From: Candidatus Hydrogenedentota bacterium
Lineage (GTDB): Bacteria; Hydrogenedentota; Hydrogenedentia; Hydrogenedentales; JAJRTN01
Assembly (NCBI GenBank): GCA_024278275.1
Contig: JAJRTN010000045.1
Coordinates: 14,560 to 78,559 of the forward strand
Direction: 5' to 3'
Length of the DNA stretch: 64,000 nt
Part shown: positions 6,221-46,252 of the stretch, one piece after another
Numbering within the stretch: position 1 is the stretch's first letter
How the letters are laid out: each line of letters opens with the position of its first letter
The notes under the pieces: generated by a model
What the model saw: the letters and a program-made list of their open reading frames with translations, nothing else
Told to the model about the DNA's origin: nothing
Databases searched by the model: none
Program-made: the position numbers and the translations under genes

Positions 6221-7414
6221 TTATGGGGTGCGGTAATGACGGCGGATAGCCTCTTCAATCTCATCCATCGCTGCGGCATAGGGCTGTACGCGCTGGCGAA
6301 CGGCAAGCTGAAGGTCGTCCAGGGCGACGAGGTCAAGCGGGTTGGCCATGGCGACCGAAAGGACTTCCCGGTCGATGTGGAAGGGCAGGCAGGTGTGGCG
6401 TCGGGCCAATTGCGGCGTGACCACGCGGAGCGCCCGGGGATCGATATTGGATTCCCGCAGGTGAATAAAAGGCACTTCCGTCTGGGCCGCAAGGGCTTGG
6501 GCAATGCGGGTGTGGGAAGTGTAGCCCTTGTCCACGAGGATTTGTCCCAGGTGACGGTTACCTTGGGCCTGTTTGGCGATCAGGGCTTCATCGAGTTGAT
6601 CCTGGGAGATGACTTGGGCCTCCACCAGGATCTGCCCCATGCGACGCTTCTGGCCATGTTCGTCACGAACGCTGGCGATCATGCGACGGTAGGGATCCAC
6701 GGGTGCAGCGTTTGGGGCGGCGCCGGTGTCCCCGGTGGCGCCGGGTGATAGGGCTGTCGCATTGATCACACCACGCCGTGCCGAATCAAGTTCCCCCTGG
6801 AGCGCGTCGATCCGTTCACGCAACGCGGCGATTTCTTCCCGTGCCGTGGCAACGACTTCGGCTTCATGGTTTTTCGCGTTGGCATGGGCTTCCCGTGCCG
6901 CGGCAAGCTCCGTCCTTAACGCGCTGACACGGTCCTGCAAGTCGGCCTCGCGTTCGCTGGGCAAAGACACCGGCCCCGTACCGGTCTCATAGGCAATCAG
7001 CGCATCACTTTCGGCGGAAAGTACGGGGGATCCCTCGCCCCGTATGGCGAGAAGCCGTTCCATGAGTTGCTCCCCCGCGCGGACCGTGGTGTTGGCCTGC
7101 TCCAGCAAGCCTTCCAGGGCGCGCTCGAAGGTCCCCAGGTACATGCCGAGTTCCGCAACGGCTGAAACCGCCTCATCAACACATCGGCGCCGTTCTTCCG
7201 GGCTCTGCTCGACGGCGTCCAGGCCGATGCGGGCCGTAACCAGGGAGGGGTAAAGGGAACGCTGCACGTCCAGCATGCGCGCCACCGAATTCAGCCGTTC
7301 CCGGCCATCCGCGATGGCGCGAAGCACCCCATGATGGGCCTTTCCCGCGCGAGCGTTCCACGCGGCAACGGCTGCCTCCAACTCCGCGAAAATGTTTTCT
7401 ACTTCATCGCCCAT
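6221..7414 (-). CDS. Coiled-coil protein with C-terminal GspE-N (T2SSE_N / MshEN-type) domain; predicted c-di-GMP receptor
   Basis: The N-terminal ~280 aa is Ala/Glu/Arg-rich and heptad-like (coiled coil). The C-terminus carries tandem MshEN-like motifs: RRMGQILVEAQVISQDQLDEALIAKQ then HLGQILVDKGYTSHTRIAQALAAQ…VPFIHL…IDPRALRVV. This matches the N-terminal domain of GspE/MshE ATPases, but no ATPase domain follows. I prefer the ATG at 7414 (strong RBS GGAGGGAG 9 nt upstream). The ORF-track start at 7462 is a TTG. Confidence 0.7.
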   Translation of the reverse strand: MGDEVENIFAELEAAVAAWNARAGKAHHGVLRAIADGRERLNSVARMLDVQRSLYPSLVTARIGLDAVEQSPEERRRCVDEAVSAVAELGMYLGTFERALEGLLEQANTTVRAGEQLMERLLAIRGEGSPVLSAESDALIAYETGTGPVSLPSEREADLQDRVSALRTELAAAREAHANAKNHEAEVVATAREEIAALRERIDALQGELDSARRGVINATALSPGATGDTGAAPNAAPVDPYRRMIASVRDEHGQKRRMGQILVEAQVISQDQLDEALIAKQAQGNRHLGQILVDKGYTSHTRIAQALAAQTEVPFIHLRESNIDPRALRVVTPQLARRHTCLPFHIDREVLSVAMANPLDLVALDDLQLAVRQRVQPYAAAMDEIEEAIRRHYRTP

Positions 7415-7535
7415 GCGACACCACTCCCTCCAATGCCCCGCGGCTGCGATTTCCCCGCGCAAGTATTATAGGGTGGCGCTGTGGGCCCTGCAAGAAGGGT
7501 AATGGCATCGGTCAACCGAATACCAACCGCCGCAT

Positions 7536-8405
7536 TCAGGTCGGTAATTCCCCGGGAACCACCAGGTCGGTCACGTCAAGTCCCGCGGCATCGCGTTGCT
7601 TCAGGTCGCGAAGAAACTCGATGAAGCCGATGGCGGGTTGCCAGCCAAGAACTTTTTCCGCTTCGGAAAGATCGTGCTGCTCAACACGTTCGGGTATGTG
7701 TATTCCATATTTCTCGATGAGGCCGCGCGCGCCGGGAAGCTGCTCTTCGCACCAATCCGGACCCAGCGCTGAAAAACGGGCCACCACTTCGGCGGGCATG
7801 TGGTGGTTCGTGTGGACAATCGTATTGAAAAGCCCAATGTCCTTTTCCGTCACCCCGCGCAAGGCGGCGAGCGTTGCCGTCGCCACGTCCTGACGGTCCA
7901 CGCCGTTCCGCAGCAGGCGCGCGCCGAAATCCAGGTACGGACCGGGCACGAAAGCATGATAGCGCAACATGGCCACGGAAGCCCCGGTCATTTCATGGTA
8001 CGCGCGGCACAGTTCTTCTCCCAGAACCTTGGTTACGGAATAAACACCGCGCCAGCCATAGGCCATGGAAGAGGCATACACCACCGGCGGGCCACCGTTG
8101 CCCCGGCAGGTTTCGAGAAGGTTGAATGTGCCGTCCACATTGACCGCGAAGATGGTTCGGTCGCTCACCGGGGGAAAGTGCCCGCAATGCCACGCCGCAA
8201 GATGGATCACGGCATCCACGCCCGTCACCGCGGCCTCGACATCCGACGGCGTGCGCGTGTCGCATCGGACGAATTCGCCCAGCGCGCGAACATCATCGGG
8301 CGGGGTGGCCACATCGGCCAGCCTGAGTTCATAGCCTGCTTCGGCAAGCAGTCTGCTCACGGCGATGCCGGCGTTGCCCGCCGCGCCCGTAATCAATACT
8401 TTCAT
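7536..8405 (-). CDS. NAD-dependent epimerase/dehydratase (extended SDR family)
   Basis: MKVLITGAAGNAGIAVSRLL (Rossmann GxxGxxG) plus a YxxxK-type active-site region. 289 aa. Confidence 0.85.
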   Translation of the reverse strand: MKVLITGAAGNAGIAVSRLLAEAGYELRLADVATPPDDVRALGEFVRCDTRTPSDVEAAVTGVDAVIHLAAWHCGHFPPVSDRTIFAVNVDGTFNLLETCRGNGGPPVVYASSMAYGWRGVYSVTKVLGEELCRAYHEMTGASVAMLRYHAFVPGPYLDFGARLLRNGVDRQDVATATLAALRGVTEKDIGLFNTIVHTNHHMPAEVVARFSALGPDWCEEQLPGARGLIEKYGIHIPERVEQHDLSEAEKVLGWQPAIGFIEFLRDLKQRDAAGLDVTDLVVPGELPT

Positions 8406-8568: not shown

Positions 8569-9627
8569 ATGTCTTACGATGACGGGTGGGCGGCGCTGAA
8601 CCTGGAGATGCCGGCGCGGGTGCCGCGCACGGAGTATTCCGCGGAAATGCACTGGCCCCTTATCCGGGCGGTGACGGGACGGGAAACCGATGCGTCCTCG
8701 TCGCCGGAAGAGCAACAGGCGGCCCGCGTGGCGTTCATGCGGGCCTGGCATTATGATTTCTGCTGGAATACATGTGTCTACCGCGATGCCTTCGACGGTT
8801 TTTTCACCCGGATGGGCCACGCCGAGTACCAGGCGGGCGGGGCGGATTTCAGCGAGGAGCGCGGCTCACCTTTCTCCACACCGGAGCAGGTACTGGCCTT
8901 CGACCCATGGGAGCAGTACGGAAAGCGCGACCACGCCACCCTGGTGCGCATGTTTCAGGATAACTACCAGGCGGCCTGCGCGAATTATCCCGACGCGGTC
9001 AACATGAGCGGCATTTACATCACCTGTATTTCGGGGCTGCTGGAGATTTTCGGGTGGGACAACCTGCTGATGGCCCTGGGCGCGGACCCGGCGGGATTCG
9101 GTGCGCTTACCAACCGCTACGCGTCGTGGATCCAACAGTATTTCGACGCCCTGGCCGACGCGCGTCTACCGGTGGTGATGGTCCATGACGACATCACCTG
9201 GACCTCGGGGCCGTTCTACCACCCGGATTGGTACCGGGAATACGTCTTTCCCAATTACCACAAGTTTTTCGATCCCCTGCGTGACGGGGGGAGCAGGATC
9301 CTTTTTACCAGCGACGGAAATTACACGGAATTCGTGGATGATATCGTGGCGGCGGGAGCCCATGGCCTGGTGCTGGAACCGGCGACGGACATGGCCTACA
9401 TTGCCGGGAAGTATGGCAAGACCCACGTGTTCATCGGCAATGGGGACACGCGGATTCTCTTGCAGGGGAGCCGCGCCGCCATCCGGGCGGAGGTGGCGCG
9501 GTGCATGGCCATTGGCAAGGAATGTCCCGGCTTTTTCATGGCCGTGGGGAATCATATTCCCGCCAACACGCCCGTCGAGAACGCCCTGTATTACAACGAG
9601 GTCTACGAGGAATTCAGCCGCCGTTGA
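8569..9627 (+). CDS. Uroporphyrinogen decarboxylase (URO-D) family protein (paralog 1)
   Basis: 352 aa. Overall similarity to the URO-D / MtaA-like methyltransferase fold, and clearly paralogous to ORF 26953-28023. RBS GAGGGGAGGAG precedes the ATG. Divergent from the epimerase gene across an AT-rich promoter region (8406-8568). Confidence 0.7.
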   Translation: MSYDDGWAALNLEMPARVPRTEYSAEMHWPLIRAVTGRETDASSSPEEQQAARVAFMRAWHYDFCWNTCVYRDAFDGFFTRMGHAEYQAGGADFSEERGSPFSTPEQVLAFDPWEQYGKRDHATLVRMFQDNYQAACANYPDAVNMSGIYITCISGLLEIFGWDNLLMALGADPAGFGALTNRYASWIQQYFDALADARLPVVMVHDDITWTSGPFYHPDWYREYVFPNYHKFFDPLRDGGSRILFTSDGNYTEFVDDIVAAGAHGLVLEPATDMAYIAGKYGKTHVFIGNGDTRILLQGSRAAIRAEVARCMAIGKECPGFFMAVGNHIPANTPVENALYYNEVYEEFSRR

Positions 9628-9696
9628 CCAATGCCCCATGGTATACTTTCGTGGAGGGCGTTCCCCTCCATGGCCCCGGTGGAATAGGGCGGTATA

Positions 9697-11202
9697 TTGA
9701 TCGAAAGTCACGAAAAGACCGGAGCGTGGCCGGGGCCGGACCGGCGTGTGCGGACGCGCGAGAAGACGAAACGTCGGGCCGTTTATTCCCGTCCCGGCGT
9801 GGCCGATGTTCTCGCCGACGGCATGGTGGTGGACATCAGCCCGAGCGGGCTTCAAATACGCACGGCCGTCCCGCTGGCCGAAGGGGATCCCATCGAAATA
9901 GAGGTGTACCCCCGAAGCGAATCGCCACGAAACAACATTATCCTGGTTCGCGGACGCGTTGTCCGCGTCTCCCCGGAGGGCGGTGAATACGCCATGGGCG
10001 TTCAACTCACCGGGCCGGCGGCCGGCGCCGGACCCGTTGCCGGCGCCGGCCCCGCGGCGCGCGTCGAGTTTTCCGCTCAAGCCCGCGCCATGATGGCCCG
10101 CCTGCCCGGACGAATCCAAAGCCGGGAACGGGGCGCGCCTTCCCTGCTGGCCTTCGCCGAGCACCAGGCCGGTGAGGCGGAAACGCCCGTGGTTTTCCGG
10201 AAAAGCCGTCCCATGCGCCGGCTTTGGCGGTCCCTGCTTCTGTTGCTCTTGTTGCTTTTGCTTGGAGGCGTGGGGTGGTGGCTTTCGCACGCCTTCCGAA
10301 CGCCGTCTCCGGCGCAAAGGGTGGCGTCCTACGGCCTCGCGACACGGAGCGCGGGCGAGACGCGAACCCTTTCCCCCGTGATCGAACCGGAGATACGCGA
10401 ACCGGTGGTGCGCCGTGCTCACGCGGATCGGCGTGGCGCGGCGCGGCTCGCCGCGGCGCAGGTCCTGCTCCTGGAGGGGGAGGTGGAATCGGCCCGCGCG
10501 GCTTTCCGGGACCTGGCGGAGGACGGGAATCACGATGCCCTTTCCCGTTTTGTTGCCCGTTTGGGCATGGCGTGGTCGTCCGTCATCCTGGGCAATACCG
10601 ACGATGCGGAGAAGGCCGTTGAAGCCGCCCTGGCGCGGGCCGCGACGGACCGGGGCGGCGCCATCCCGAAACCTTGGGCGGGCGTGGCGGAATCCATGGA
10701 GCGGGACCTTGAGCGGGGTGATCCGTCGTGGCCGGCGCTGGGGTTTCTCGTGGATGCCTTAGTGCTGGGTGAGATGCGCGCACCCGCCGATAATCCCGCC
10801 CCCGCGGATGAGGCGGGACGAATGCGTATCGAGGTGAGCACTTCCCAATACCTGCTTACCGTTCGGCGCGGGAACCTGGTGCTGGGCCGCTTTCCCGTGG
10901 GCCTTGGCAAGGACGGCGCCACGCCGGAAGGCCATTTTTCCCTGGTCAACAAGATTCGCGATCCCGCGTGGTACAACCGGGGCAACGTGGTGCCGCCGGG
11001 CGATCCAAAGAACCCCCTGGGCGCGTTTTGGATGGGCCTGGGTGACGACAAGGGCCCGACGCCCATCGGTATTCATCCCACCGGCGACTCGGCCTCCATT
11101 GGCGAAAACCAGAGCCGGGGTTGTATCCGAATGCGCCCCGAAGACGCGGAGCGCGTATTCCGCTGGTGTCCCTTGGGCACCCCCGTTCGGGTGGCGCCGT
11201 GA
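9697..11202 (+). CDS. PilZ domain / transmembrane / L,D-transpeptidase (YkuD) fusion protein
   Basis: N-terminus: RR…R then DISPSG (the PilZ RxxxR + DxSxxG c-di-GMP-binding signature) and a beta-barrel-like segment. Middle: poly-Leu TM helix LLLLLLLLLLGGVGWWL. C-terminus: GIHPTGDSASIGENQSRGCIRMRPEDAERVF, the L,D-transpeptidase catalytic H…S.GC(I/V)R motif. Confidence 0.75.
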   Translation: MIESHEKTGAWPGPDRRVRTREKTKRRAVYSRPGVADVLADGMVVDISPSGLQIRTAVPLAEGDPIEIEVYPRSESPRNNIILVRGRVVRVSPEGGEYAMGVQLTGPAAGAGPVAGAGPAARVEFSAQARAMMARLPGRIQSRERGAPSLLAFAEHQAGEAETPVVFRKSRPMRRLWRSLLLLLLLLLLGGVGWWLSHAFRTPSPAQRVASYGLATRSAGETRTLSPVIEPEIREPVVRRAHADRRGAARLAAAQVLLLEGEVESARAAFRDLAEDGNHDALSRFVARLGMAWSSVILGNTDDAEKAVEAALARAATDRGGAIPKPWAGVAESMERDLERGDPSWPALGFLVDALVLGEMRAPADNPAPADEAGRMRIEVSTSQYLLTVRRGNLVLGRFPVGLGKDGATPEGHFSLVNKIRDPAWYNRGNVVPPGDPKNPLGAFWMGLGDDKGPTPIGIHPTGDSASIGENQSRGCIRMRPEDAERVFRWCPLGTPVRVAP

Positions 11203-11337
11203 GGGCGGGGACTTAGTGGACCAAAGGAGTGCCGCCAGGGTGTTGGTCCGAGCCGACAGGAGGCATGCCCCGTCCACGGTGCCCACGAGGTCCGCCGGGG
11301 GTTGTACCCATGAATCTTGCCGTGTAGCATTAAGGCC

Positions 11338-12855
11338 ATGAACAAACTGCTGGAACGTATCCGGGAATCTTTTGGCCGGGGACGGCGCTTTGTCAAGCAT
11401 GATGCGTGGCGGATTGGCCTTCCCGGAGAAGACCTGCCTCACGGGTTCATCGCCAAGCAGGTGCGGGTGGCCTTTCTGTTGCTGCGCGGGCTGGGCGAGG
11501 AAACCGTGCTTCTCCGGGCCTCGGCGCTGACCTTCGCCACCATGCTTTTTATTGTGCCTTTCCTCACCTTCATGTTTTTCATCATCCAGACCTTCAACCT
11601 GGGCGACGAGGTATACCGTTCCCTTTCGGAAAAACTGGACACGAAGATCACCCATGTGGCTTCGGCGCTGCGGGGAATGCCTGAAGAGGAGGTGGTTGCG
11701 GAAACCCCCGAGACAAAACCGGATCATGAGACGGAGACGGACGCGTTGCGTCAGCAATTGATCGAACTGGTCTTTCCTCGCGCCATTTTCTCGGAGGATG
11801 GCGGTTTGGCCGACGGCACGAATCGTCAGGATCCGGTGCAGGAACTGGTCAACCTGGCGACCAGGGGGGCGAAAAGTCCCAAGACCATCGGGATCAGCGG
11901 GCTGCTGTTCATCCTCAGCACCGTTTTCGGTTTCATGCGCAACGTGGAGGTGGCCTTCAACAAGATCTGGGGGGTGCGCCGGACACGAAGCCCTTTCCGC
12001 GCCATCAGCGACTACATGATGGTGACCTTGGTGCTGCCCTTTGCCGCGGCGGGCGTGCTGGCGATTACGGCCGCCATGCAGAGCGACACCGTGGCCAATG
12101 CGCTTGGTCCGCTCGCCGTGGGGCTCCGGGGCGGACAGTTCGGCGTACTCTGGTTCATCTTCACCATTCTCTACTTTTTTGTCCCCAACACCCGCGTACG
12201 CCTTCGCTACGCGGTACTGGGTGGTTTCGTGGGCGCCCTGTTACTCACGCTGAGTTCGTCGGCCTTTGTGAAGTTCCAATTCGGTCTCAGTCGCTACGAC
12301 CTTTTCTTCTCCAGTTTCGCCCTGTTTCCGTTGCTCGTCATGTGGATCTTTGTGAGCTGGCTTATCCTGCTCTTTGGCGCGCTCGTGACCTTTGCCTACC
12401 AGAACGAAAAAACCTTTGCCATGGAACGCTGGGCCGAAGGCGCGAGCTATGCCTACCGCGAGGCCCTGGGGCTTCGCGCGGTGGTGGACATGGCGCGCCG
12501 CTTCAAGGAAGGACAGGATCCGCTTGGCGTTGAGGAGGCCGCCGCCGCCTGGAACGTGCCCACCCGCCTGCTCCACGAGACTATGACCTGCCTGGTAAAC
12601 GCCAAACTCGCAATGCCCTGCGCCACCGAACCGGTTACCTACCAGCCCGGCCGTTCGCCCGACGCCACCCGCATCCGCGACGTGGTGCGCGCCATCCGGG
12701 AATCGGGGCAGGATCCCTCGCTCCTGCGCGCGGAAGGGGCCTTTCGTCCGCTCTATGAAGGGGTGCAGCAGGGCGATGCCGCCTGCCTGGACGCCACCAT
12801 CGCCGACATGCTGGAGCGCACCTTCGCCGCCGCCACCGTAGAGACCGACGAGTGA
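11338..12855 (+). CDS. YihY/BrkB (virulence factor BrkB / RNase BN-like) family inner membrane protein
   Basis: …RASALTFATMLFIVPFLTFMF… and multiple TM segments are typical of the YihY family. Start chosen at MNKLLERIR (11338). Confidence 0.8.
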   Translation: MNKLLERIRESFGRGRRFVKHDAWRIGLPGEDLPHGFIAKQVRVAFLLLRGLGEETVLLRASALTFATMLFIVPFLTFMFFIIQTFNLGDEVYRSLSEKLDTKITHVASALRGMPEEEVVAETPETKPDHETETDALRQQLIELVFPRAIFSEDGGLADGTNRQDPVQELVNLATRGAKSPKTIGISGLLFILSTVFGFMRNVEVAFNKIWGVRRTRSPFRAISDYMMVTLVLPFAAAGVLAITAAMQSDTVANALGPLAVGLRGGQFGVLWFIFTILYFFVPNTRVRLRYAVLGGFVGALLLTLSSSAFVKFQFGLSRYDLFFSSFALFPLLVMWIFVSWLILLFGALVTFAYQNEKTFAMERWAEGASYAYREALGLRAVVDMARRFKEGQDPLGVEEAAAAWNVPTRLLHETMTCLVNAKLAMPCATEPVTYQPGRSPDATRIRDVVRAIRESGQDPSLLRAEGAFRPLYEGVQQGDAACLDATIADMLERTFAAATVETDE

Positions 12856-26952: not shown

Positions 26953-28023
26953 CTATTGTTTTCCGTCAAACCAGTAGGTTTGAAACGCTTCGAAGGCGGA
27001 GGCCAGGGCCTCCACATTCTCCGGGGGGGTGGGCGGATAGATGCCCGCTACCAATTCCAGGCCGCCGGCGGGATCGCCGAGGGTCCGGACCTCCTCCTCG
27101 ACCAGTTCCCGGATCTCGGTGGGCGTGCCGTAGGGCACGGTGGTCTGCCGGTCCACGTCGAGGCTGATACAGATACGCCCCTTCAGTTCACGGCGCAGGT
27201 TCTCGATTCCGTTGCACAAGTCCTGCGGATTGATAATGGTCACGCCCGCCACGATAAGATCGTCCAGCAGATCCATGATATAGCCGTCACTGTGCAGGTA
27301 GACCTGCTTGCCCCGCGCGCGGCAGGGTGCGATAAGCCGCTCGTAGACGGGCTTGCAGTAGCGGCGAAACATGGCCGGGCTGATGATGGAAGCGTTCTGC
27401 GAACCCAAGTCTTCCGCCAGGCTGATCATGTCCACGTCCGCGTCGAGATACTCCTCGACAATCGTCTTGTTGTGTCCATACAGGGCTTCGACGAGTTCGT
27501 CCAGCCGGGGCTCCTCGGTGGCCATGTCGATCATCAGGTTCTCAAAGCCCCGCAGATAGGTAAGCCGCATGAAATGGAAGCCATGGGGCGGCCCGCCTGC
27601 CGCCAGTTGCCCGGCGGCCTTGCTCCGGGCCAGGTTTTCCCGGATCCACGCCCAGTCCACGGGGCCCCGATCGCCCGTCTCCAGGGGATCGGGCACACGG
27701 TAGTTGGACCACGCCTCCCAGGAGGCCAGGGGGTGGCGCGTCACCACGCCTTCAATACCGTTCATGGGGGTTTCCCACACGCAACCCCACGCATCGGTGA
27801 AGGGCTCGCCCACCTGGTGGGCGGGGCCGAAGCGGAAATGGTCATAGTCCCGCTTTCCGGGCACGAAGTCCGGCCATAAGCGGGGGTGGCGGGCCACGAC
27901 TTCCTCGAGGTCATGGCGCAACTGGTCCCAACTCGCGTTCGAGATATGAAGCCCCACCGGCATGTATTCCGGATGCTCAAACGATGCGTTCCGCAGGTAG
28001 TTCTCGCGTGGACTCAGCCCCAT
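26953..28023 (-). CDS. Uroporphyrinogen decarboxylase (URO-D) family protein (paralog 2), embedded between gspA-like and gspB-like genes
   Basis: 356 aa, URO-D/MtaA-like fold and paralogous to 8569-9627. Intergenic gaps to neighbours are only 2 nt and 16 nt, so it is predicted to be co-transcribed. Confidence 0.7.
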   Translation of the reverse strand: MGLSPRENYLRNASFEHPEYMPVGLHISNASWDQLRHDLEEVVARHPRLWPDFVPGKRDYDHFRFGPAHQVGEPFTDAWGCVWETPMNGIEGVVTRHPLASWEAWSNYRVPDPLETGDRGPVDWAWIRENLARSKAAGQLAAGGPPHGFHFMRLTYLRGFENLMIDMATEEPRLDELVEALYGHNKTIVEEYLDADVDMISLAEDLGSQNASIISPAMFRRYCKPVYERLIAPCRARGKQVYLHSDGYIMDLLDDLIVAGVTIINPQDLCNGIENLRRELKGRICISLDVDRQTTVPYGTPTEIRELVEEEVRTLGDPAGGLELVAGIYPPTPPENVEALASAFEAFQTYWFDGKQ

Positions 28024-28025
28024 GC

Positions 28026-30218
28026 TCAGTTTTCCTCGGGGGTTGGCGTGCCGTCGGCGCCGCCATCGTTCCCGGTTTGGCCGTCGGTCAAAGGTGGTAT
28101 GCCGGGGGCCGGTGCCGTACGCTCCTTGAGATCCAGGGGACTCAGCGGACCCAGGCCGGTGGGAAAAAAGGGTACGTCCAAGTCCTCAATCGAAAGCAGG
28201 TTCGTGTCGTCAGCAACAGGGAATCCGGATGCCTTTTCCGACTCCGTCGCGGGTGCTTTGGCGGTCTTCACCTTTTCCGAAGGTGTCGGTGTTGGCCCGG
28301 TCTTCACCTTTTCCGAAGGCGTCGGGGTTGGTCCGGTCTCCGGGGCTTTGGGTTTCGGCGGGACCGGCGACGACGGCGGATTCGCCCGGGCGATGGTTTC
28401 CAGCGCTTCGGGCCGGTCCTCGCCGGGCACCGCCCGCTTGAGCGTGGGCGAACCCGTTCCGGGCAACCAGCTATTGAGCACCATGCGCACCTGGCGTCCC
28501 GCGATCCCATCGACAATCAACCCGGTCTCCGCCTGGAGCTTGGATACGGCCCCGGCGGTGTGAGAGTCGTATCGGTCGTCTCGGGCTCCTTCTTCCAGGC
28601 GGTGCAGAAGGCGGAGGTTGGCCTTGAGAGCGGCCACGTAAGGCCCTTTACGGCCCAACATCATGTCGGGGGCCTTCGGGTCTTTATCACGCCACAGGAC
28701 AATGGCCTCATCGGCGTAGGCATCCAGAATCTCCCCCCGAGGCGCTTCCACCACCTTATCGCCCTCGGCGGTCAGCCACAGGCGATCATCGTCCGCGCCA
28801 ACCAGGGCGACCCAGTAATCCCGTGAAGCCGATCCGGTTTTGCCGGGCCGAAGACGGATCAGGGCGGGAAGATCCAGGGCTACCAGTTGACTCAACGCGG
28901 GCCGAATACGTTCGTGCTTGAGTCCCAGCTCCCCGGCCAACGTCACCAATTCCCTGTCGCTGGCGGGCAAAGCGCGATCCTCGGGAAGGGTAACATCCCA
29001 AATGCGCAGCAAGGTGCGGCTGGCGGAACGGCACGCGGTTTCCGGGTCCGTGGCCAACAGCGCTTCCCCCAGCGGGATCGTTTCGCCGGGCGCTTTCTCC
29101 GGCTCCTGCGCTTTTCGGGTTACGGACACTTCCGGGGTTTCCGGCGGATCAACCGTTTTTTCCGGCGACGTGTTGTCCCGGGTCTTGGCATCCGCAGCGG
29201 GCGTCACCGGATCGCCTGGACGCGCGACCGGTACCCCGAGGGTCGCCACATCGCGGAAAACGCGGACCCCATCCACGATCTCGCCCAGGACGGGGCCGAA
29301 CTGTTGGACGAGGAAATAGGCCAACACGAGCGCCAGCAATAAGGCGGGACTCGGCAGCCAGCGCCAACGGGAAAGGCCGGCACGTTTCTTTTTGCCCGTC
29401 CTTATCTTCTCACCGCGAATTTCGACGGCCGCCTTCTTCACGATGGCCGCCGTGATGATGTGGGCTTCCCGGGTATAACCGATGAGCAACGCGCGGTCGC
29501 AGATGGCGTTGATCATGCGGGGAGTTCCCCCCGAGTGCTTGTATATTTGCCGAATGGCGGACCGGTTGAATCGCACGCTCCGCCGTCCGCCGGCGGTATG
29601 AAGGCGGTACGCCACGTATTGCAGCGTTTCCTTCTCGCTCAGTTCCTTGAGGTGATACCGGGCCGTGATGCGCTGGTTGAGCTGGCGCAATTCATGGAGG
29701 GCAAGCATTTCGCCCAATTCCGGCTGACCCACCAGCACGATCTGGAGCAGTTTTTCCGTTTCGGTCTCCAGGTTCGAGAGGAGACGGATCTGTTCCAACA
29801 CCTGGGGCGAAAGATTCTGTGCCTCGTCGATAAGCAGCACGCAGTTCCGGCCCCGGGTCTTGGCTTCGAGCAGGTAAACGTTAAGCTCCTCGACCAGGTC
29901 GAGCACATTATCCCCCACGGGGGTCAGCCCGAATTCCGTCAGGATCTTGCGGATGAGCTCCACCGGCTTGAGCGAGGGATTAAAGATGAAAGCCAGTTCC
30001 GTGTCGCTGTCAAGCTGGCGCACCAGGTTACGGCAGATGGTCGTTTTGCCCGTGCCGATCTCGCCGGTGACCATGACGAAACCCGAACCGCTCTTGATGC
30101 CATAAAGCAGGTGGGCAAAGGCCTCCTTATGCTTCTCGCTCAAGAAGAGGTATTTGGGGTCGGGCGTGAGGTTGAACGGCTTTTCGCTCAGCCCATAGAA
30201 GGCCTCGTACATGACCAC
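28026..30218 (-). CDS. gspA: GspA/ExeA-like AAA+ ATPase with TM segment, periplasmic peptidoglycan-binding domain and Pro/Thr-rich repeat tail
   Basis: N-terminal …LSEKPFNLTPDPKYLFLSEKHKEAF…GFVMVTGEIGTGKTT…CVLLIDEAQNL… is the ExeA/MshM-type AAA. TM WRWLPSPALLLALVLAYFLV. PG_binding_1-like YDSHTAGAVSKLQAETGLIVDGIAGRQVRMVLNSW. ORF-track start 30218 is GTG. An ATG at 30212 has RBS GAGGTG. Confidence 0.8.
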   Translation of the reverse strand: MVMYEAFYGLSEKPFNLTPDPKYLFLSEKHKEAFAHLLYGIKSGSGFVMVTGEIGTGKTTICRNLVRQLDSDTELAFIFNPSLKPVELIRKILTEFGLTPVGDNVLDLVEELNVYLLEAKTRGRNCVLLIDEAQNLSPQVLEQIRLLSNLETETEKLLQIVLVGQPELGEMLALHELRQLNQRITARYHLKELSEKETLQYVAYRLHTAGGRRSVRFNRSAIRQIYKHSGGTPRMINAICDRALLIGYTREAHIITAAIVKKAAVEIRGEKIRTGKKKRAGLSRWRWLPSPALLLALVLAYFLVQQFGPVLGEIVDGVRVFRDVATLGVPVARPGDPVTPAADAKTRDNTSPEKTVDPPETPEVSVTRKAQEPEKAPGETIPLGEALLATDPETACRSASRTLLRIWDVTLPEDRALPASDRELVTLAGELGLKHERIRPALSQLVALDLPALIRLRPGKTGSASRDYWVALVGADDDRLWLTAEGDKVVEAPRGEILDAYADEAIVLWRDKDPKAPDMMLGRKGPYVAALKANLRLLHRLEEGARDDRYDSHTAGAVSKLQAETGLIVDGIAGRQVRMVLNSWLPGTGSPTLKRAVPGEDRPEALETIARANPPSSPVPPKPKAPETGPTPTPSEKVKTGPTPTPSEKVKTAKAPATESEKASGFPVADDTNLLSIEDLDVPFFPTGLGPLSPLDLKERTAPAPGIPPLTDGQTGNDGGADGTPTPEEN
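28263..28334. repeat. Tandem 2 x 36-nt direct repeat (33/36 identical) encoding TGPTPTPSEKVK x2 in GspA-like tail
   Basis: ggtcttcaccttttccgaaggtgtcggtgttggccc / ggtcttcaccttttccgaaggcgtcggggttggtcc. Confidence 0.7.
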
Positions 30219-30572: not shown

Positions 30573-31088
30573 CTACACCTTAAGCGTGGCAAAGGTCACC
30601 GAACAGAGGAGGCCTTTCTCACCTGACGCGGGGCGTATCCACATCTCGCGCATAACCACCAAGTCCTTGTGGTCATGCACCCGGTGCAGGAACTTCACGA
30701 CCTCCCCGAGTGATACGCCCTCCAGTGAGACCTTGACGGCAGGCTGGTTCTCGTTGCCCCGGCGGCGGCTGGTCACGTTGTCGATACGTGCGCGATCCTT
30801 CAGCCGCGATTCCGCCAGGGCCTTATCGAGGAAGGCGTAGAGGTCGAAAGAGGGACTGCGCCCCTGAAGCCGCTGCTTGAGCGCCTCCTGACTGCGCAGG
30901 CGGATCCGCTCCTCGTCTCGCGCGTCGCGGGTGAGTTGAAGCTCGTGCCGTTTCCGGGCCACTTCGCGCCGTGACCGTTCGTAGTCCTTGCGCGGTCCGG
31001 CGGGGATATAGGCCAGCAGGGCCAGCACCAGCAGAAAGGCCACCCCGCCAAAGAACAGGCCGGCCTTTTCACGACGGTCAAGATTCAT
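30573..31088 (-). CDS. gspM: Type II secretion system protein M (GspM)-like
   Basis: 171 aa, bitopic (TM GLFFGGVAFLLVLALLAYIP), last gene of the gspC-M series. Overlaps the gspL stop by 11 nt. Confidence 0.55.
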   Translation of the reverse strand: MNLDRREKAGLFFGGVAFLLVLALLAYIPAGPRKDYERSRREVARKRHELQLTRDARDEERIRLRSQEALKQRLQGRSPSFDLYAFLDKALAESRLKDRARIDNVTSRRRGNENQPAVKVSLEGVSLGEVVKFLHRVHDHKDLVVMREMWIRPASGEKGLLCSVTFATLKV

Positions 31089-32541
31089 GGTCCGCGCCCT
31101 CCTTCCTGTCTTCGGGGCGGAAAGCTATGATGGTGAATGCCGTCGTGTTCCCCTTGGTGCTTTTCCGGGGCTCATCCCGAATTGTAAAGTATGGCGAATT
31201 GGCCAGGTCCTGGAAAACCTGGTTGAACACGGCCACATCGTCGGTATTTCCCTCGATGGTAAGCCAGCCGGCCTTGGCACCGGGGGGAGAAAACTTGATG
31301 CTTGTAATATGTACTTTACGGTCGGGCATTTTGCGGCTGATCTCCGCCAGCAGATCCAGCGTCACGGGGGCGTTGAACATCTCGGTGTCCACGTCCACGC
31401 CGATACCTCGGGACTCCAAGTCCGCAATTTCATCGTTAATCGCCTGAATTTGCCCGTCAAGAGCGGCGATTTCCGCGTTATTCGAACGGATGCCCAGTTC
31501 GTAGTATCCCACCCAGCAGATCAAGGCCAACAATGCCAGGCACGAGGAAAACATGAGGTGGGCGATTACACCCCGCAAAGCGCCCTCGGCTCCCTGCTCG
31601 GCACGAATGAAATCCAGGGCGAAAGGCCCGCCCAGCGCGCCGGCGGCCGCCCCGCAGAGTCCCTCCCAAGTGTTTCCTTCCGCCGTGCCGGGGTCCTCTC
31701 CGAGCACTTTCACCGCCCCACGCAAGGCGGGCAACATCACTTCGGACTCGACCCGCATGTCGAGCGCCCGGGACAGGACGTCCGACTCGGCGGGGTCGAG
31801 CGCAACGCCCGTCACATGCAACGTATCCAGTTCCGCGTCGCCACGCCACCGTGCCAGAAAGGCGCGCAGGGTGTTCTGCACCTCGCGGGCAACCGCCCGG
31901 GGATCTTCCCGCAACGTATCAACCCCGCACGGGATATGTCGAAAGTAGGCCAGCCCGCCATGGTAGAGAATGACGAGGTTCGATCCCGTGGCCCCGGCGT
32001 GCAATACGGCCGCAAGCCCCTTCGGCATGCGACGACCCGCGGCCCACAGCCCGGTGAGGGCGGGCGCGTCAAGGGTCACCGCGTCGGCAACGACACCGGC
32101 GGCCTTGAGCCATTCCAACTGTTCATCCACCTGCTGACGGCGAACCCCCATGGCGAGCACTTCCGTCTCGCCATCGAACTCGGCCACGGGTTTGAAATCC
32201 AGCAACAGCTCGTCAATGGGAAAGGCGAGGTAGGGCTCCAGTTCGAACTGCACGGCCGCGGCCACGCGGCGGCGGCCACGAAAGGGAATGGTGAGGGCGC
32301 GCACGATGCCATATTGACTGCCCAAGCAAAGAACGAAAGCGGCGGGCCGGTGTTTCAGCCCGTCCAACAGCCGCTCGATGGCGGCCACCGTTGCCTCCGA
32401 ACGCTGCTCGGGGTCCCCGCCGTTGATGGGCTCGACCAGCAAATCAAGCACTTTGGGCCGCCTGCCGCCGGTCTTGACGACGGCCAGGCGTACAACGCTC
32501 TCGCCTATCTCGATGGCGGCCAGCTTTACGCTAAACAACAT
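31078..32541 (-). CDS. gspL: Type II secretion system protein L (GspL): cytoplasmic actin-like (PilM-like) domain + TM + periplasmic PilN-like domain
   Basis: N-terminal MLFSVKLAAIEIGESVVRLAVV… (actin-like ATPase fold start), TM HLMFSSCLALLALICWVGYY, periplasmic C-terminus. 487 aa. Confidence 0.7.
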   Translation of the reverse strand: MLFSVKLAAIEIGESVVRLAVVKTGGRRPKVLDLLVEPINGGDPEQRSEATVAAIERLLDGLKHRPAAFVLCLGSQYGIVRALTIPFRGRRRVAAAVQFELEPYLAFPIDELLLDFKPVAEFDGETEVLAMGVRRQQVDEQLEWLKAAGVVADAVTLDAPALTGLWAAGRRMPKGLAAVLHAGATGSNLVILYHGGLAYFRHIPCGVDTLREDPRAVAREVQNTLRAFLARWRGDAELDTLHVTGVALDPAESDVLSRALDMRVESEVMLPALRGAVKVLGEDPGTAEGNTWEGLCGAAAGALGGPFALDFIRAEQGAEGALRGVIAHLMFSSCLALLALICWVGYYELGIRSNNAEIAALDGQIQAINDEIADLESRGIGVDVDTEMFNAPVTLDLLAEISRKMPDRKVHITSIKFSPPGAKAGWLTIEGNTDDVAVFNQVFQDLANSPYFTIRDEPRKSTKGNTTAFTIIAFRPEDRKEGADHES

Positions 32542-32638
32542 TCAACCCGCTCCAGCTTCTTTGAAAAGACAGGGCACACACCCCCGTCCGGAAAACCGAT
32601 GCCCAGTATAGCGTTTTGTGACCAACGGCTTCGACCCT

Positions 32639-33787
32639 CTATCGGATGACACGCCATTCCAGGATGCGGAACGGCTCCGCGGGCGCTTCGGTACCCGCCG
32701 GAAAGTCCGGTACGGCCCCCCCTGTTTCCAGGGGCGTGCGCCACACATAGGCCTCGATGCGAACCATGTTTTCCCCGGCCAGTCCATCGCCGCGAATGCG
32801 AAACACATTGCTGTTCACCCGAAAGGCGCGTTGGGAGGGCGGCGGCGGGGCGTCTGGATCCCGGGCCCGGTTTCGGTTTCGCGTCCGGTCTTGATCCCGG
32901 CCCGGCCCCGGGCCCACGTAATCCGCCAATTCCCCCACATTCCCGAAAGGCTGCTCTTCGTGGGTACGAATGTAGATGTCTTCACCCGCCGTGAAATTGA
33001 ATCCAGACCCGTCGTAGGCGCCGACCACGGCGGCCAGCACCTCCTCCCGCGCGGTATTGGCGTTGACCCGTCCCTGCCAATCCCCATGGACCGTGAGATA
33101 CTCGCTAAGCGGCAGTTGATCCCGTTCCGGGTCGCCCCAATAGATGTCGGGGGTGATGCCTTTGATCAACAGGAGTTCTTCAATGGTGTCCATCTGGGCA
33201 TTCTTGCAGGGATAAGGGATTTCCGAAGCCTCGTAGAAATCGTTTTCCGCGCCGCCGGGTCGCTCGTCGTCCTCGTCGCCATAATCCAGCCAATCCAGGA
33301 TGGCGTCCACGGGATCCTCGGCATCGGGCGCGCGGTCGAGAAAGAAAGCGCGCAGGGCCTCAACCAATGCCTCCCGCTCGACGGGCGGACTCTGGCTGTA
33401 GTCAAGCAGGGCATTGAGGTTGATCTTGCCATACTCGTCGTCGATGGTGGCGCGCATGTACGCGTCTTCGTTGATGGGATCGAAAGGATGGCCCGCGTAC
33501 CACACATCCAGGGCCGTATCGAGGACGGTCAGGTCGTACTGAGGGTCCGAGTTATCCGGAAGCAGGTCAGCCGCGAGGAGGGCCAGGCCTTGGGCCACGG
33601 CGGACTTCGCGGCGAGGCGGGCCTGTAGGTCATTGCCCCGATTCTCAGCGAAAGAAGCCTCCAACTGGCCGTCGTAGCTGAAGTTTACGACCAACACGGA
33701 AAGGAGTACGATGAACAACAGGGCGAGAATGAGAGCCATGCCCTCGTCCCGTCGCGCCGGTCCATGTTCACGGTGATAACTGCTCAT
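32639..33787 (-). CDS. gspK: Type II secretion system minor pseudopilin K (GspK)
   Basis: GMALILALLFIVLLSVLVVNFSY (non-cleavable-type pseudopilin N-terminus), …YGKINLNALL… GspK signature, 382 aa. ATGA overlap with the gspJ stop. Confidence 0.7.
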   Translation of the reverse strand: MSSYHREHGPARRDEGMALILALLFIVLLSVLVVNFSYDGQLEASFAENRGNDLQARLAAKSAVAQGLALLAADLLPDNSDPQYDLTVLDTALDVWYAGHPFDPINEDAYMRATIDDEYGKINLNALLDYSQSPPVEREALVEALRAFFLDRAPDAEDPVDAILDWLDYGDEDDERPGGAENDFYEASEIPYPCKNAQMDTIEELLLIKGITPDIYWGDPERDQLPLSEYLTVHGDWQGRVNANTAREEVLAAVVGAYDGSGFNFTAGEDIYIRTHEEQPFGNVGELADYVGPGPGRDQDRTRNRNRARDPDAPPPPSQRAFRVNSNVFRIRGDGLAGENMVRIEAYVWRTPLETGGAVPDFPAGTEAPAEPFRILEWRVIR

Positions 33788-34617
33788 CGCTGTTCCCTGA
33801 ATATGCCGTCGGGATCGTCGATCAGATCGGTTCCCAAATGGTTCATATCGAGAAACCGGTCCACCACGCCCATCCCCGCGGCCAAGGGGATGGTCACGTC
33901 AAGGTCCGCCGTCTCGCCGAATTCAATGCCGGCCTCCAGGTCCCCCTGGTATTCGGCCTCGCTCCGGGGAAAATCGATCCGGATCCAGACGGCCCAGGGC
34001 AAGCGGTTGGTTTCCAACGAATCCCAGTCCTCGACCCAGTCCTCGCTTTCAATGTCGTAATACAGCACATCGAAAGACCGCACGGGAACCTGCCGGCTCG
34101 TGCCCAGCGCCTCATAGTCTCCGGAATCCCGTTCCTCATTCAGACTGGACAGCACCAGGGGCCGCTCGGTAATGGTGAGCATGACGGACGGCTTGCGGTC
34201 GAGGTAGTCCCGGTCCATGTCGTAAGCCAGGGAACCGTCTCCCCCATCCTCCTCCACCTCCCCCACTTCGTAACTTACCACCTTAAATATGCCGGGCAGC
34301 GCGTAGGGACCGCTCATGGGCTGGGAGGTACAGAAAGACACGCTATCCGCGGGGCCCAACATGGTCTCGCCGTTCTCCCCCAGAAACTGGTACTCCGTCA
34401 CGACGCACGCCGAATCAGCGTAAACCGTGCTGAAATTGGTGAAAAGGTTCTCTTGCAGAATCTGCCGGAAACGCAGCTCTCTCGACAAGTCCCGCATCAT
34501 CTCGGTGGCGCTGATCACCGAATTGAGACTGACGAAAACAACCATCACCAGGATGGTGAGCAGGGTGAGCGCGACCAGCATCTCGATGAGCGTAAAGCCC
34601 TGCCGCCGGGGGATCAT
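33784..34617 (-). CDS. gspJ: Type II secretion system minor pseudopilin J (GspJ)-like, extended (277 aa)
   Basis: Prepilin N-terminus MIPRRQG|FTLIEMLVALTLLTILV (G-1, F+1, E+5). Position between the I-like and K genes. Acidic C-terminal extension. Confidence 0.65.
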   Translation of the reverse strand: MIPRRQGFTLIEMLVALTLLTILVMVVFVSLNSVISATEMMRDLSRELRFRQILQENLFTNFSTVYADSACVVTEYQFLGENGETMLGPADSVSFCTSQPMSGPYALPGIFKVVSYEVGEVEEDGGDGSLAYDMDRDYLDRKPSVMLTITERPLVLSSLNEERDSGDYEALGTSRQVPVRSFDVLYYDIESEDWVEDWDSLETNRLPWAVWIRIDFPRSEAEYQGDLEAGIEFGETADLDVTIPLAAGMGVVDRFLDMNHLGTDLIDDPDGIFREQR

Positions 34618-35138
34618 CGCGCGCCTCCCCGCATACGCGAACGGGTGTTGCCGAAACCGCCGGGGCGGGAATTGCCATTGGACGACGCCCCGCTTCGTGA
34701 AAAAGAACGGCTTTTCCCCGAATTACCGCGGCCCGTGCCGCCATCCAAGTCCTCCGGCCCCGTGTTAAAACAAAGAAAGGTCACTTCCCGCGTATCCGTC
34801 GGGCCGGTCAGGCGCACGTCCACCGCATAGAGGGGGATCAATTCATCTTCATCGGCGGTGGCTTCGTAAGACCACTCGAACCCCGGGTACCGCGCGCCAA
34901 AATCACCGCCCCCCGCAAGCGCGCCGTTAATCACCTCCACTTCCGCGAAGGCCACGCTCCGCTCGAGAAGCAACCGCATGTTCACTTCCTCATCCACCAC
35001 CTGGTGAAGCTGCAGGGACTGGCTGTGCGCGGCCAGCAGGATAAACATGGCGGAACCCAGTATGGCCAGCGCCGCCAGAACTTCCATGAGGGTGAAACCG
35101 GCGATTGGGGTCCGCTGTGCAAAGGGGGCGCGTGTCAC
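34614..35138 (-). CDS. gspI: Type II secretion system minor pseudopilin I (GspI)-like with Gly/Ser/Arg-rich C-terminal tail
   Basis: …PIAG|FTLMEVLAALAILGSAMFILL prepilin motif. GTG start overlapping the gspH stop (GTGA). The C-terminal 40 aa is low-complexity (GRGNSGKSRSFSRSG…). Confidence 0.65.
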   Translation of the reverse strand: MTRAPFAQRTPIAGFTLMEVLAALAILGSAMFILLAAHSQSLQLHQVVDEEVNMRLLLERSVAFAEVEVINGALAGGGDFGARYPGFEWSYEATADEDELIPLYAVDVRLTGPTDTREVTFLCFNTGPEDLDGGTGRGNSGKSRSFSRSGASSNGNSRPGGFGNTRSRMRGGAR

Positions 35139-35959
35139 CGGTCCGGCCTCCCTTCAAAGGCTTCCGATTCACCCGTGACGGGATCCCAGATCACGGTGTA
35201 TTCATCGCCATCGCCGTTGGCCAGGAGGAAGACCGTCTCCGCAGGGAAACCCAGCGGCGTGATCTCGATCTCCACCACCCCCGAACGGTATTCCACGTTG
35301 TCCACATAAACCGCTTCTATCCACGCATCCTCGAGGGCCACGGGCATCAGCGTCAAGTCCTCAACCATCTCCTCGACGGGTTCCGCCTGATCCAGGTCGA
35401 GTTCCTCATCATCGAAGATGTCCACCTGGTCCAGAAACCCCTCCTCATGCACGACATTCCTGGCCCGCTCGTCGATGGCACGCCGGGCGAAATCGTTGAA
35501 ACGGTCCCCCATCTGTTCGTCGGCCAGTTCCGGGTCGAAATCCCCGTCCAAATCACCCAGGCTGCGAACCTTGTCGGTGCTGTTACCGCGGAGCAGACTC
35601 GACAAGTCATCCGCGGAAAGCCCCCCCTGCCGGAGATCCTTCAAACGCGACCACTGGTCTTCATCGGCCCCGGAACCGGGAACATCCTCCTCCGAATCGG
35701 GAATCACCCAATGTACGGTGTAGTACTCCTGCTTGTCCAGATCGATTCGAACCACGTGGCGTTCACGGGTAAACAGGGCCCGCCCATAAGCGCCGCGGCC
35801 ATAGCCCGCCAGGTGATTCGCCTCACGCTCAAGACCGCTGAAGGCGATGAGCGGCGCGAATTGCGGAAAGGCCACGGCGGCAATAAGACCGATAAGGAAG
35901 ATCACCACCATCAGTTCAATCAGCGTGAACCCGGCCTTTTCTCGAACGTAACCGTTCAC
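35135..35959 (-). CDS. gspH: Type II secretion system minor pseudopilin H (GspH)-like with long acidic C-terminal region
   Basis: Prepilin motif …VREKAG|FTLIELMVVIFLIGLIAAVAF. The real start is a GTG at 35959 preceded by AGGAAGG (5 nt spacer). The ORF-track start at 36076 would add a 39-aa unlikely leader. Confidence 0.65.
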   Translation of the reverse strand: MNGYVREKAGFTLIELMVVIFLIGLIAAVAFPQFAPLIAFSGLEREANHLAGYGRGAYGRALFTRERHVVRIDLDKQEYYTVHWVIPDSEEDVPGSGADEDQWSRLKDLRQGGLSADDLSSLLRGNSTDKVRSLGDLDGDFDPELADEQMGDRFNDFARRAIDERARNVVHEEGFLDQVDIFDDEELDLDQAEPVEEMVEDLTLMPVALEDAWIEAVYVDNVEYRSGVVEIEITPLGFPAETVFLLANGDGDEYTVIWDPVTGESEAFEGRPDR

Positions 35960-36010
35960 GGAACCTTCCTGTCTTGGCAACCGTTCACGGAGAACTCGCC
36001 CCTTTCGGTG

Positions 36011-36028
36011 CCGCTTGGATCCAAGCGG
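36011..36028. repeat. 18-bp perfect palindrome CCGCTTGGA|TCCAAGCGG, with a second hairpin (36038-36057) in the gspG-gspH intergenic region
   Basis: Read from the sequence. Lies 3' of the major pseudopilin gene on the transcribed strand. No U-tract. Confidence 0.5.
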
Positions 36029-36141
36029 ATGGAGTAGGGACAAGCTCCCACTTGTCCGTTGACCGGGCGTGGACAAGCCTCAAAAGGGACCTCTTGCCTG
36101 ACACAAAGCACTTGACGCCTACGGTCGCGCGGGTGCCCGCC

Positions 36142-36567: not shown

Positions 36568-36820
36568 TACCCTGGATCTCCTTGTGCCGTGTCGTGAATC
36601 CGGGCCTTGGCGGCCCGGATGCCTGCTGTAAAAGCTGATTTCCTTTAACCACGAAAAAGTCGAAGCACACGCATTGGGATATCAAAAACACCGCCGACAA
36701 TGGTCGAAATCGCTTCCTTCTTTCGTATGTTTCGTGGTTCATCCCTTTTCCGGGGCGTGGGCATGGCTCACGCCAGTATAACGGATTCATCCTTCGGGTC
36801 GTTGACCACGGGCGTGGCTA

Positions 36821-38044: not shown

Positions 38045-38056
38045 GAGCGTGCGGCG

Positions 38057-39802: not shown

Positions 39803-39804
39803 GC

Positions 39805-42336: not shown

Positions 42337-42380
42337 GCGGCGTATCGGCGCCGGTCCAGGACGTCTTGACGGTCCAAAAC

Positions 42381-46153: not shown

Positions 46154-46252
46154 GGCACCCGGTCCTTCCGCCGGCCGGTCAGGCTGGTCTTGTCGCGAAG
46201 ATCCGCCCACGGACCGCCGAACGGCCCGCGGGCGAAGATCCACTATATCCGT

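Follow-up and report, generated by a model that had tools for sequence, protein, structure and literature searches.

A conserved fusion of a PilZ domain with an L,D-transpeptidase in the uncultured phylum Hydrogenedentota suggests a direct link between c-di-GMP and cell-wall chemistry

The window analysed here is a stretch of 64,000 nucleotides from a Candidatus Hydrogenedentota bacterium (assembly GCA_024278275.1, contig JAJRTN010000045.1, positions 14,560 to 78,559 of the forward strand). Our subject is a single gene in it, 9697-11202, together with its conserved neighbours. The gene encodes a protein in which a PilZ domain, the receptor type for cyclic di-GMP (c-di-GMP), is followed by one transmembrane (TM) helix, a helical module resembling tetratricopeptide repeats (TPR), and a YkuD-type L,D-transpeptidase domain. 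The initial annotation, made from the letters alone, had proposed a PilZ domain fused through a TM helix to an L,D-transpeptidase, and both Pfam domains and one TM helix were indeed recovered in this open reading frame (ORF). Its third-position GC content amounts to 0.75 overall and to 0.72-0.78 in each of four segments, and therefore fits a real gene in DNA of 62% GC. As background, c-di-GMP is the main bacterial motile/sessile switch; where it is known to act directly, the targets are for the most part flagella, pili, adhesins, exopolysaccharide synthases, and transcription. L,D-transpeptidases restructure peptidoglycan when cells are stressed, make cells tolerant of beta-lactams, and serve to tether the outer membrane; to our knowledge, and by the literature searched, their regulation is transcriptional, through envelope-stress systems, with no second messenger acting on the enzyme itself. 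The fusion of the two domains, conserved across an uncultured phylum, suggests that c-di-GMP and cell-wall chemistry are directly linked.

The distribution of the fusion was examined by a combined pattern and tblastn scan in which each of 185,579 species was represented by one genome; it gave 73 loci. In 28 of these PilZ and YkuD lie in one ORF, as recognised by local hidden Markov models (HMMs) built from the homolog alignment; in the remaining loci just the YkuD part matches. By their labels, 21 of the 28 belong to Hydrogenedentes, Hydrogenedentota, or Hydrogenedentales, four to 'uncultured Nitrospiraceae/Nitrospirales', and three carry no taxon name. The four Nitrospiraceae/Nitrospirales-labelled carriers (L004, L012, L020, and L025) are third-party co-assembly metagenome-assembled genomes; either these bins are mislabelled or the family really occurs outside Hydrogenedentota. 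None of the 28 carriers is reliably assigned outside this phylum, which is represented here by metagenome-assembled genomes only. Searched with a profile, 1.84 billion cluster representatives (50% identity) yielded 1,298 matches below 1e-30, the best 150 of which align, almost all of them, end to end. Family statistics were taken from 143 two-domain proteins (the representatives) out of 159 retrieved proteins, and 19 database homologs carry both Pfam domains. Judged by this recurrence, the PilZ-YkuD fusion is a conserved family, ancient and selected.

The PilZ domain lies within the first 120 residues, where the initial annotation had placed it: Pfam PF07238 matches residues 39-106 with 38.4 bits (E 1.7e-9; gathering cutoff 22.5). 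Since this match begins at profile position 22, past the RxxxR arm, the assignment of the arm was taken from the alignment with 20 database homologs. Here the conserved motif is (E/D)RRxxxR, and the window version reads D15-RRVRTR-21. The arm had initially been read as RRAVYSR (residues 26-32); we rejected this candidate for its wrong spacing, with arginines that are not four apart, and RRVRTR (16-21) replaces it on the evidence of the family alignment. The second motif, DISPSG, stands as first proposed. Between the two motifs lie 24 residues, a spacing shared by 19 of the 21 motif-intact species loci and by 70 of the 95 representatives with strict motifs. Seven PilZ columns are invariant in the 22-sequence alignment and five of them are ligand-motif residues (R, R, R, S, and G), which makes the putative ligand site the most strongly conserved part of the domain. 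In PilZ structures, a double arginine ahead of xxxR tends to accompany binding of an intercalated c-di-GMP dimer. Comparing the family PilZ profile with the PDB gave, as the best sequence match to a solved structure, the PilZ domain in BcsA, the cellulose synthase of bacteria (c-di-GMP co-crystal entries); in this weak match (E about 0.1) the alignment is in register, with RRxxxR on the c-di-GMP-contacting RRAAPR and DxSxxG on DASTSG. The module is modelled as a six-stranded barrel that resembles a c-di-GMP-bound PilZ structure. A bare expression, RR...R(18-32)[DN].S..G, also matches one shadow ORF in the window, and support is therefore drawn from HMM scores and cross-species conservation and not from the motif alone. 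By HMM, by both motifs, and by its barrel fold, the window PilZ is classed with the canonical c-di-GMP-binding type, as a putative binder.

Recognition of the complete ligand site depends on the start codon. The NCBI protein P0001 is identical to the window protein, at 484 aa; being 17 aa shorter than the ORF, it must start at GTG 9748 (V18), and R16 and R17 are thereby removed. An in-frame stop (TAG) lies at 9685-9687, and TTG 9697 and GTG 9748 are the only starts before R21. The residues N-terminal to V18 are kept in P0002, a 64%-identical homolog (GAWPGP-[DE]RR-RTRE). The NCBI start was rejected on two grounds: it deletes the invariant R16 and R17, and the residues upstream of it are conserved in P0002. 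TTG 9697, the only start that retains the RRxxxR motif and the coordinate given by the initial annotation, is thus the better one, and the NCBI gene model hides the putative c-di-GMP ligand site of this protein. Among the 143 representatives, 17 have an N-terminus that was apparently truncated by gene calling, with DxSxxG present, as in P0001, a pattern indicative of start codons being systematically miscalled, with the predicted site hidden as a result. In the databases, PilZ-YkuD proteins are named just 'L,D-transpeptidase family protein' or 'ErfK/SrfK', and ten representatives that were looked up gave generic names and almost no taxonomy. Between such generic names and a start codon that, in the window protein, lies past R16 and R17 and deletes these ligand-motif arginines, the sensor is invisible in databases.

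The C-terminal domain matches Pfam YkuD (PF03734) with 82.4 bits (E 6.2e-23; cutoff 23.4) over residues 377-499, covering positions 3-146 of the 146 in the profile. The YkuD motif H...S.GCIRM seen by the initial annotation is intact as H460...S473-R-G-C476-I-R-M and fits the pattern H-x(14-17)-[ST]-x-G-C-h-R. The homolog alignment shows no variation at H460 and conservation of at least 90% at C476, and His...GC(I/V)R(M/L) is kept in 133 of the 143 representatives. With Foldseek and phmmer, H460 and SRGCIRM align on GIHGT...SKGCIRM of B. subtilis YkuD, relative to which the family has an insert of its own, 14 residues long (AWYNRGNVVPPGDPKN). Whatever the method, YkuD was matched best by B. subtilis LdtBs, LdtMt2, and Ldtfm. 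NCBIfam subtype models (LdtE and others) matched partially and so far below their cutoffs (37.5 vs 480) that no L,D-transpeptidase subtype can be assigned. Neither a LysM nor a PG_binding_1 domain was found by Pfam in the window protein. The helical module ahead of the YkuD domain overlaps sub-threshold Pfam TPR matches at residues 241-314.

Concerning topology, the N-terminus is highly charged and there is no signal peptide. The Kyte-Doolittle mean over 19 residues exceeds 1.6 only in segments starting at residues 175-182 (best value elsewhere, 1.12), and the core of this TM helix is flanked by five lysines or arginines in the 15 residues before it and two after it. A TM segment lies between PilZ and YkuD in 141 of the 143 representatives; the flanking lysines and arginines average 4.7 on the N side vs 2.0 on the C side, with the excess on the N side in 126 and on the C side in 6 of the 141. 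Applied to this bias, the positive-inside rule puts the PilZ end in the cytoplasm and the TPR-YkuD end in the periplasm, the arrangement foreseen by the initial annotation. By prediction, N-in/C-out is also the only arrangement in which both domains would meet their ligands. An AlphaFold2 (AF2) model built on a 21-sequence alignment has a mean predicted local distance difference test score (pLDDT) of 69 and a predicted template modelling score (pTM) of 0.37, with four confident modules: the barrel, the TM helix, the helical bundle, and the YkuD domain. In the connecting stretches (residues 107-171, 203-242, and 353-373) pLDDT falls below 50, and the linkers of about 45-65 residues on both sides of the TM helix (107-172 and 200-244) are probably flexible. 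The cytoplasmic linker contains a short motif, APSLLAFAEHQ (residues about 146-156; 10132-10164), which part of the homologs share in conserved form (PSPLA[FY]xE[HQ]) and which is a possible docking element.

Table. Features of the PilZ-YkuD protein and its conserved neighbours (positions in the window; AF2 entries are modelled).
Feature	Residues	Position	Strand	Remarks
Whole gene, PilZ - TM - TPR-like - YkuD protein		9697..11202	+	ORF list; TTG start; 501 aa
PilZ domain	15-106	9739..10014	+	Predicted cytoplasmic
RRxxxR motif (R16 R17 V R T R21)	16-21	9742..9759	+	Predicted c-di-GMP-binding; R-R-xxx-R invariant in alignment A2 (22 sequences)
DxSxxG motif (D46 I S48 P S G51)	46-51	9832..9849	+	S48 and G51 invariant, D46 at least 90% conserved (alignment A1)
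Six-stranded barrel (AF2)	Strands between 26 and 104			pLDDT 66-89
Cytoplasmic linker	107-172	10015..10212	+	Polybasic before TM; pLDDT <50 over most
Single TM helix, predicted signal-anchor, N-in/C-out	173-199	10213..10293	+	Sole hydrophobic segment; AF2 helix, pLDDT 70-91
Five-helix TPR-like module, predicted periplasmic	245-340	10429..10716	+	AF2 five-helix bundle, pLDDT 74-94
YkuD L,D-transpeptidase domain	376-500	10822..11196	+	H460 at 11074-11076, C476 at 11122-11124; AF2 pLDDT 82-92
YihY/BrkB-family polytopic membrane protein		11317..12855	+	Likely start ATG 11338; Pfam BrkB, TIGR00765
Coiled-coil + MshEN protein		6221..7462	-	Candidate second c-di-GMP receptor; MshEN PF05157, NF053729

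The ligand motifs are not kept throughout the family. Strict RRxxxR...(D/N)xSxxG is present in 95 of the 143 representatives, and 26 have neither motif. At the level of species loci, both RRxxxR and DxSxxG were lost in six species (L013, L015, L017, L018, L020, and L021), and L014 has the variant ExSxxG. All seven keep a PilZ-like fold signal (in the degenerate subclade the local PilZ HMM scores at E 1e-4 to 1e-6), the TM helix, the catalytic cysteine, and a downstream YihY gene. Given that the subclade without motifs keeps the enzyme, the latter is maintained without a need for nucleotide binding, and PilZ looks like a regulatory add-on able to decay into a structural module. Two loci of the motif-less subclade also have a small stand-alone gene for a canonical PilZ (ERRRHIR...DLSASG), some 3 kb downstream of the L,D-transpeptidase-YihY pair (L013, 8071-8421, and L018, 11599-11946, both on the minus strand).

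Two neighbours accompany the gene. Directly downstream, on the same strand, a YihY/BrkB gene is found in 22 of the 28 loci; of the six loci without it, three have less than 900 bp of downstream sequence. In the window this protein scores 132.7 bits with PF03631 (cutoff 33.7) and 98.1 bits with TIGR00765 (cutoff 73.15). A scan of the plus strand for sigma-70 promoters and terminators gave no useful candidate, and no terminator-like site was seen between the PilZ-YkuD and YihY genes. The C-terminal domain of the YihY partner (about 130 aa, residues about 365-500) is strongly conserved, with many invariant residues, and in a PDB profile search it resembles winged-helix regulators of the Rrf2 family (CymR 2y75 at E 0.0019, 7zpn, and 4cic); why an Rrf2-like domain should be joined to a polytopic membrane protein is unexplained. 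For YihY, a structural relation to CysZ and to mitochondrial (AAC) carriers is all that is proposed (preprint 10.64898/2026.03.31.715626). The other neighbour, encoded divergently upstream, is a coiled-coil protein with an MshEN domain (PF05157, 71.3 bits, cutoff 23.1) that also passes the c-di-GMP-motif model NF053729 (54.2 bits, cutoff 38, residues 274-327). Its homologs lie divergently upstream of PilZ-YkuD in 11 of the 18 motif-intact loci that have enough upstream sequence, abutting the gene in nine, vs none of the seven loci with degenerate or variant PilZ motifs. The MshEN-type gene that the initial annotation had remarked on, about 2 kb away, is thus a conserved divergent neighbour and not a coincidence. 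The two genes that separate it from PilZ-YkuD in the window, an epimerase gene (7536-8405) and a URO-D/MtaA-like gene (8569-9627, +), are not conserved beside the homologs and are therefore treated as insertions. The URO-D/MtaA-like (methylcobamide methyltransferase-like) gene has a paralog at 26956-28023 on the minus strand.

Elsewhere in the window, GspE (38060-39949) reaches 680 bits with TIGR02533 (cutoff 630) and 50.8 bits with NF053729 (cutoff 38), and is a candidate for a third c-di-GMP receptor. Because the MshEN protein and GspE both pass the NCBI c-di-GMP-motif model, the organism very probably uses c-di-GMP.

How does the window protein compare with known systems? The periplasmic part of Alg44 is a non-enzymatic domain like that of membrane-fusion proteins (MFP). 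In Alg44 of Pseudomonas aeruginosa, an N-terminal PilZ domain (R17xxxR21) is followed by a single TM helix and a domain in the periplasm; the protein works in a membrane complex, where a polytopic partner depends for its activity on c-di-GMP binding by Alg44 (PMC4436075). It is the closest architectural precedent for the window protein, which has the same succession of cytoplasmic PilZ, one TM, and periplasmic domain, and an RxxxR at identical residue numbers, R17 and R21 (PMC4436075). The differences lie in the partner, a family 2 (GT-2) glycosyltransferase in the case of Alg44 and YihY here, and in the TPR and catalytic YkuD domains of the window protein, whose output would be cell-wall chemistry and not exopolysaccharide. 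With neither an MFP-like domain nor a GT-2 neighbour, the window protein is Alg44-like in layout only and not a member of the Alg44 family. BcsA, the closest PilZ by sequence among solved structures, differs in that its PilZ adjoins its own cytoplasmic catalytic site and gates it directly, whereas the catalytic domain of the window protein is across the membrane. The known paradigm for cytoplasmic c-di-GMP binding that controls a periplasmic enzymatic event is LapD-LapG of Pseudomonas fluorescens. LapD sequesters a separate periplasmic protease by means of an EAL domain that is degenerate, a HAMP relay, and a pair of TM helices; the window protein, in contrast, has PilZ, one TM, no HAMP, flexible linkers, and the enzyme in its own chain. 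No EAL, GGDEF, or HAMP domain was found in it by Pfam at E up to 1, and it is therefore not a LapD family member. PA0012 differs as a stand-alone soluble PilZ of a single domain (85 residues; 19% identity).

Among L,D-transpeptidases, neither B. subtilis YkuD (LdtBs) nor LdtMt2, Ldtfm, and E. coli LdtA-E has a cytoplasmic sensor domain. Characterised enzymes are lipoproteins, secreted, or simply anchored, and usually carry LysM, PG-binding, or Ig-like domains, whereas the PilZ-YkuD family has its 14-residue insert and TPR-like module. Outside the family, the YkuD relatives that came closest in the motif-seeded genome scan are TM-anchored LysM-YkuD proteins of Planctomycetota/Kuenenia (L029-L034; 41-43% identity over residues 380-499). 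Like the PilZ-YkuD family, these have a signal-anchor helix on the N-terminal side and, in the periplasm, a long linker, but they have only about 25 cytoplasmic residues, no PilZ, and LysM ahead of YkuD. Since the nearest outsiders are anchored in this way and have no PilZ, the comparison suggests that an anchored L,D-transpeptidase gained PilZ in the Hydrogenedentota lineage.

Our preferred reading is that the protein is a bitopic inner-membrane L,D-transpeptidase whose cytoplasmic PilZ would bind c-di-GMP and would control the tethered periplasmic enzyme by assembly or docking, a proposal to which we give an even chance. In it the N-terminal 106 residues would bind c-di-GMP through R16/R17/R21 and D46/S48/G51. 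Because long flexible linkers flank the TM helix, a rigid allosteric relay is unlikely; the signal would be transmitted by c-di-GMP-dependent self-association, or by docking of PilZ on a membrane or cytoplasmic partner, and either of these would determine where, when, or as part of what assembly the tethered enzyme works on peptidoglycan. Candidate docking partners would be the YihY-family protein in the first place and the divergently encoded coiled-coil MshEN protein in the second. The enzyme would form 3-3 cross-links, or would attach envelope proteins covalently to meso-diaminopimelic acid (meso-DAP), and the net effect would be a coupling of the sessile/motile messenger to the rigidity or tethering of the cell envelope. 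Control of the PilZ-YkuD enzyme by c-di-GMP is plausible but unproven. A more specific form, in which c-di-GMP directly controls periplasmic L,D-transpeptidation through a single-pass PilZ-L,D-transpeptidase assembled with the YihY protein and the coiled-coil MshEN receptor, is offered tentatively, as less likely than not. If true, it would provide the first case of a peptidoglycan cross-linking enzyme that a second messenger gates, and would for the first time place the widespread, uncharacterised YihY/BrkB family in a functional context.

Several observations weigh against control by c-di-GMP through docking. The matches of the PilZ profile to PDB sequences are weak, and the AF2 model, given its low-scoring linkers and low pTM, yields no inter-domain geometry. 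The motif-less subclade indicates that the enzyme can function without c-di-GMP binding. The interactions with YihY and MshEN partners are proposed from synteny only. Finally, no diguanylate cyclase (GG[DE]EF) or phosphodiesterase was found in the 64-kb window or in 30 related loci; this absence is uninformative, and not a negative, because the loci are short and represent the same neighbourhood.

Among the alternatives, the main rival is a division of labour as in Alg44, which seems to us about half as likely as the preferred reading. Here c-di-GMP-bound PilZ would act on the cytoplasmic face of YihY, a putative transporter with an Rrf2-like domain, and not on its own enzyme, and the TPR-YkuD part would mainly couple the complex to peptidoglycan. 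YihY is the most consistently linked gene, on the same strand and with no terminator-like site in between, its cytoplasmic C-terminal domain is highly conserved, and the flexible linkers make regulation in cis across the membrane awkward. The PilZ of Alg44 is, moreover, needed for polymerisation by the partner Alg8 and not for the periplasmic interactions of Alg44 (PMC4436075). Against this, the pairing with YihY persists in the subclade without c-di-GMP motifs and is thus independent of nucleotide binding, and the only proposal on YihY is that it resembles CysZ/AAC carriers in structure (10.64898/2026.03.31.715626). A PilZ that serves as a nucleotide-independent scaffold or localisation module, in a membrane-anchored L,D-transpeptidase placed by protein-protein contacts, is rather improbable. 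There are examples in the Pseudomonas PilZ itself and in other non-binding PilZ relatives, and the degenerate subclade, which retains the fold signal and the rest of the architecture, the 26 representatives with neither motif, and the NCBI gene model of the window protein without R16 and R17 all agree with it. However, the window protein and 20 other species loci have all the canonical ligand-contact residues at fixed spacing, and these are the most conserved PilZ positions; the codons upstream of V18 are conserved at the protein level in P0002, which supports the TTG start, and the PilZ fold matches a c-di-GMP-bound PilZ structure.

A different question is whether the YkuD domain has another output, as an L,D-carboxypeptidase (Csd6/Pgp2-like), in attachment of outer-membrane proteins to peptidoglycan, or as a DpaA-like amidase that releases such proteins. 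Such alternative chemistry is compatible with any regulatory model, including the docking of a c-di-GMP-bound PilZ that we prefer, and we consider it a minority possibility. It would accord with the partial, far sub-cutoff matches to LdtE and the other NCBIfam subfamily models, with the conserved insert, and with the lack of LysM or PG_binding_1, unlike the nearest Planctomycetota relatives; the intact catalytic histidine and cysteine, and best matches that are all bona fide transpeptidases (LdtBs, LdtMt2, and Ldtfm), speak for transpeptidation. The chance that the fusion itself is an artefact, by misassembly, by a frameshift joining two genes, or as a spurious GC-rich ORF, is negligible. An antisense ORF of 455 aa does overlap the gene (9166-10533, minus strand), as is usual in GC-rich sequence, and was rejected as a shadow ORF. 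The steady third-position GC along 9697-11202, strong HMM support at both ends of the protein, and a continuous architecture repeated across 28 species genomes, independent of one another, and across 143 cluster representatives argue against an artefact, and this cross-species conservation refutes a misassembly or chimera.

Neither a PilZ-YkuD fusion nor an L,D-transpeptidase under direct control by c-di-GMP was described in the full-text literature searched or in a PilZ-domain survey preprint, a coverage outside which most subscription journals fall; within it, the remark of the initial annotation that such a regulatory link was not, to its knowledge, experimentally established is supported. 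Each domain taken singly is an ordinary member of its family, and what is new is their conserved, phylum-level fusion. With it, a direct connection from c-di-GMP to the cell wall can be put to the test on one recombinant protein, and the conserved pairing with YihY/BrkB provides a handle on a very widespread family of membrane proteins.

The remainder of the window holds further genes of note, all on the minus strand. A complete type II secretion-like cluster (30576-43571) comprises GspC, the secretin GspD, GspE, GspF, GspG, further pseudopilins, GspK, and a PilM/GspL-like protein. Beside it, 28029-30218 encodes a protein of 730 aa with an AAA_22 ATPase and a PG_binding_1 domain (ExeA/GspA-like), which scores 304.8 bits with TIGR03015 ('PEP-CTERM system-associated ATPase'), just below the cutoff of 324.5; it shows that peptidoglycan-interacting envelope machinery is present in the organism. 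The gene at 43733-46252 encodes 840 aa with no Pfam match and a protein-sorting-type C-terminal signal (CFI-box-CTERM NF041770, 41.8 bits, cutoff 40). It is followed in the window by a giant ORF of 3,782 codons (46256-57601), with a coding-like GC content by codon position of 0.63/0.46/0.77.

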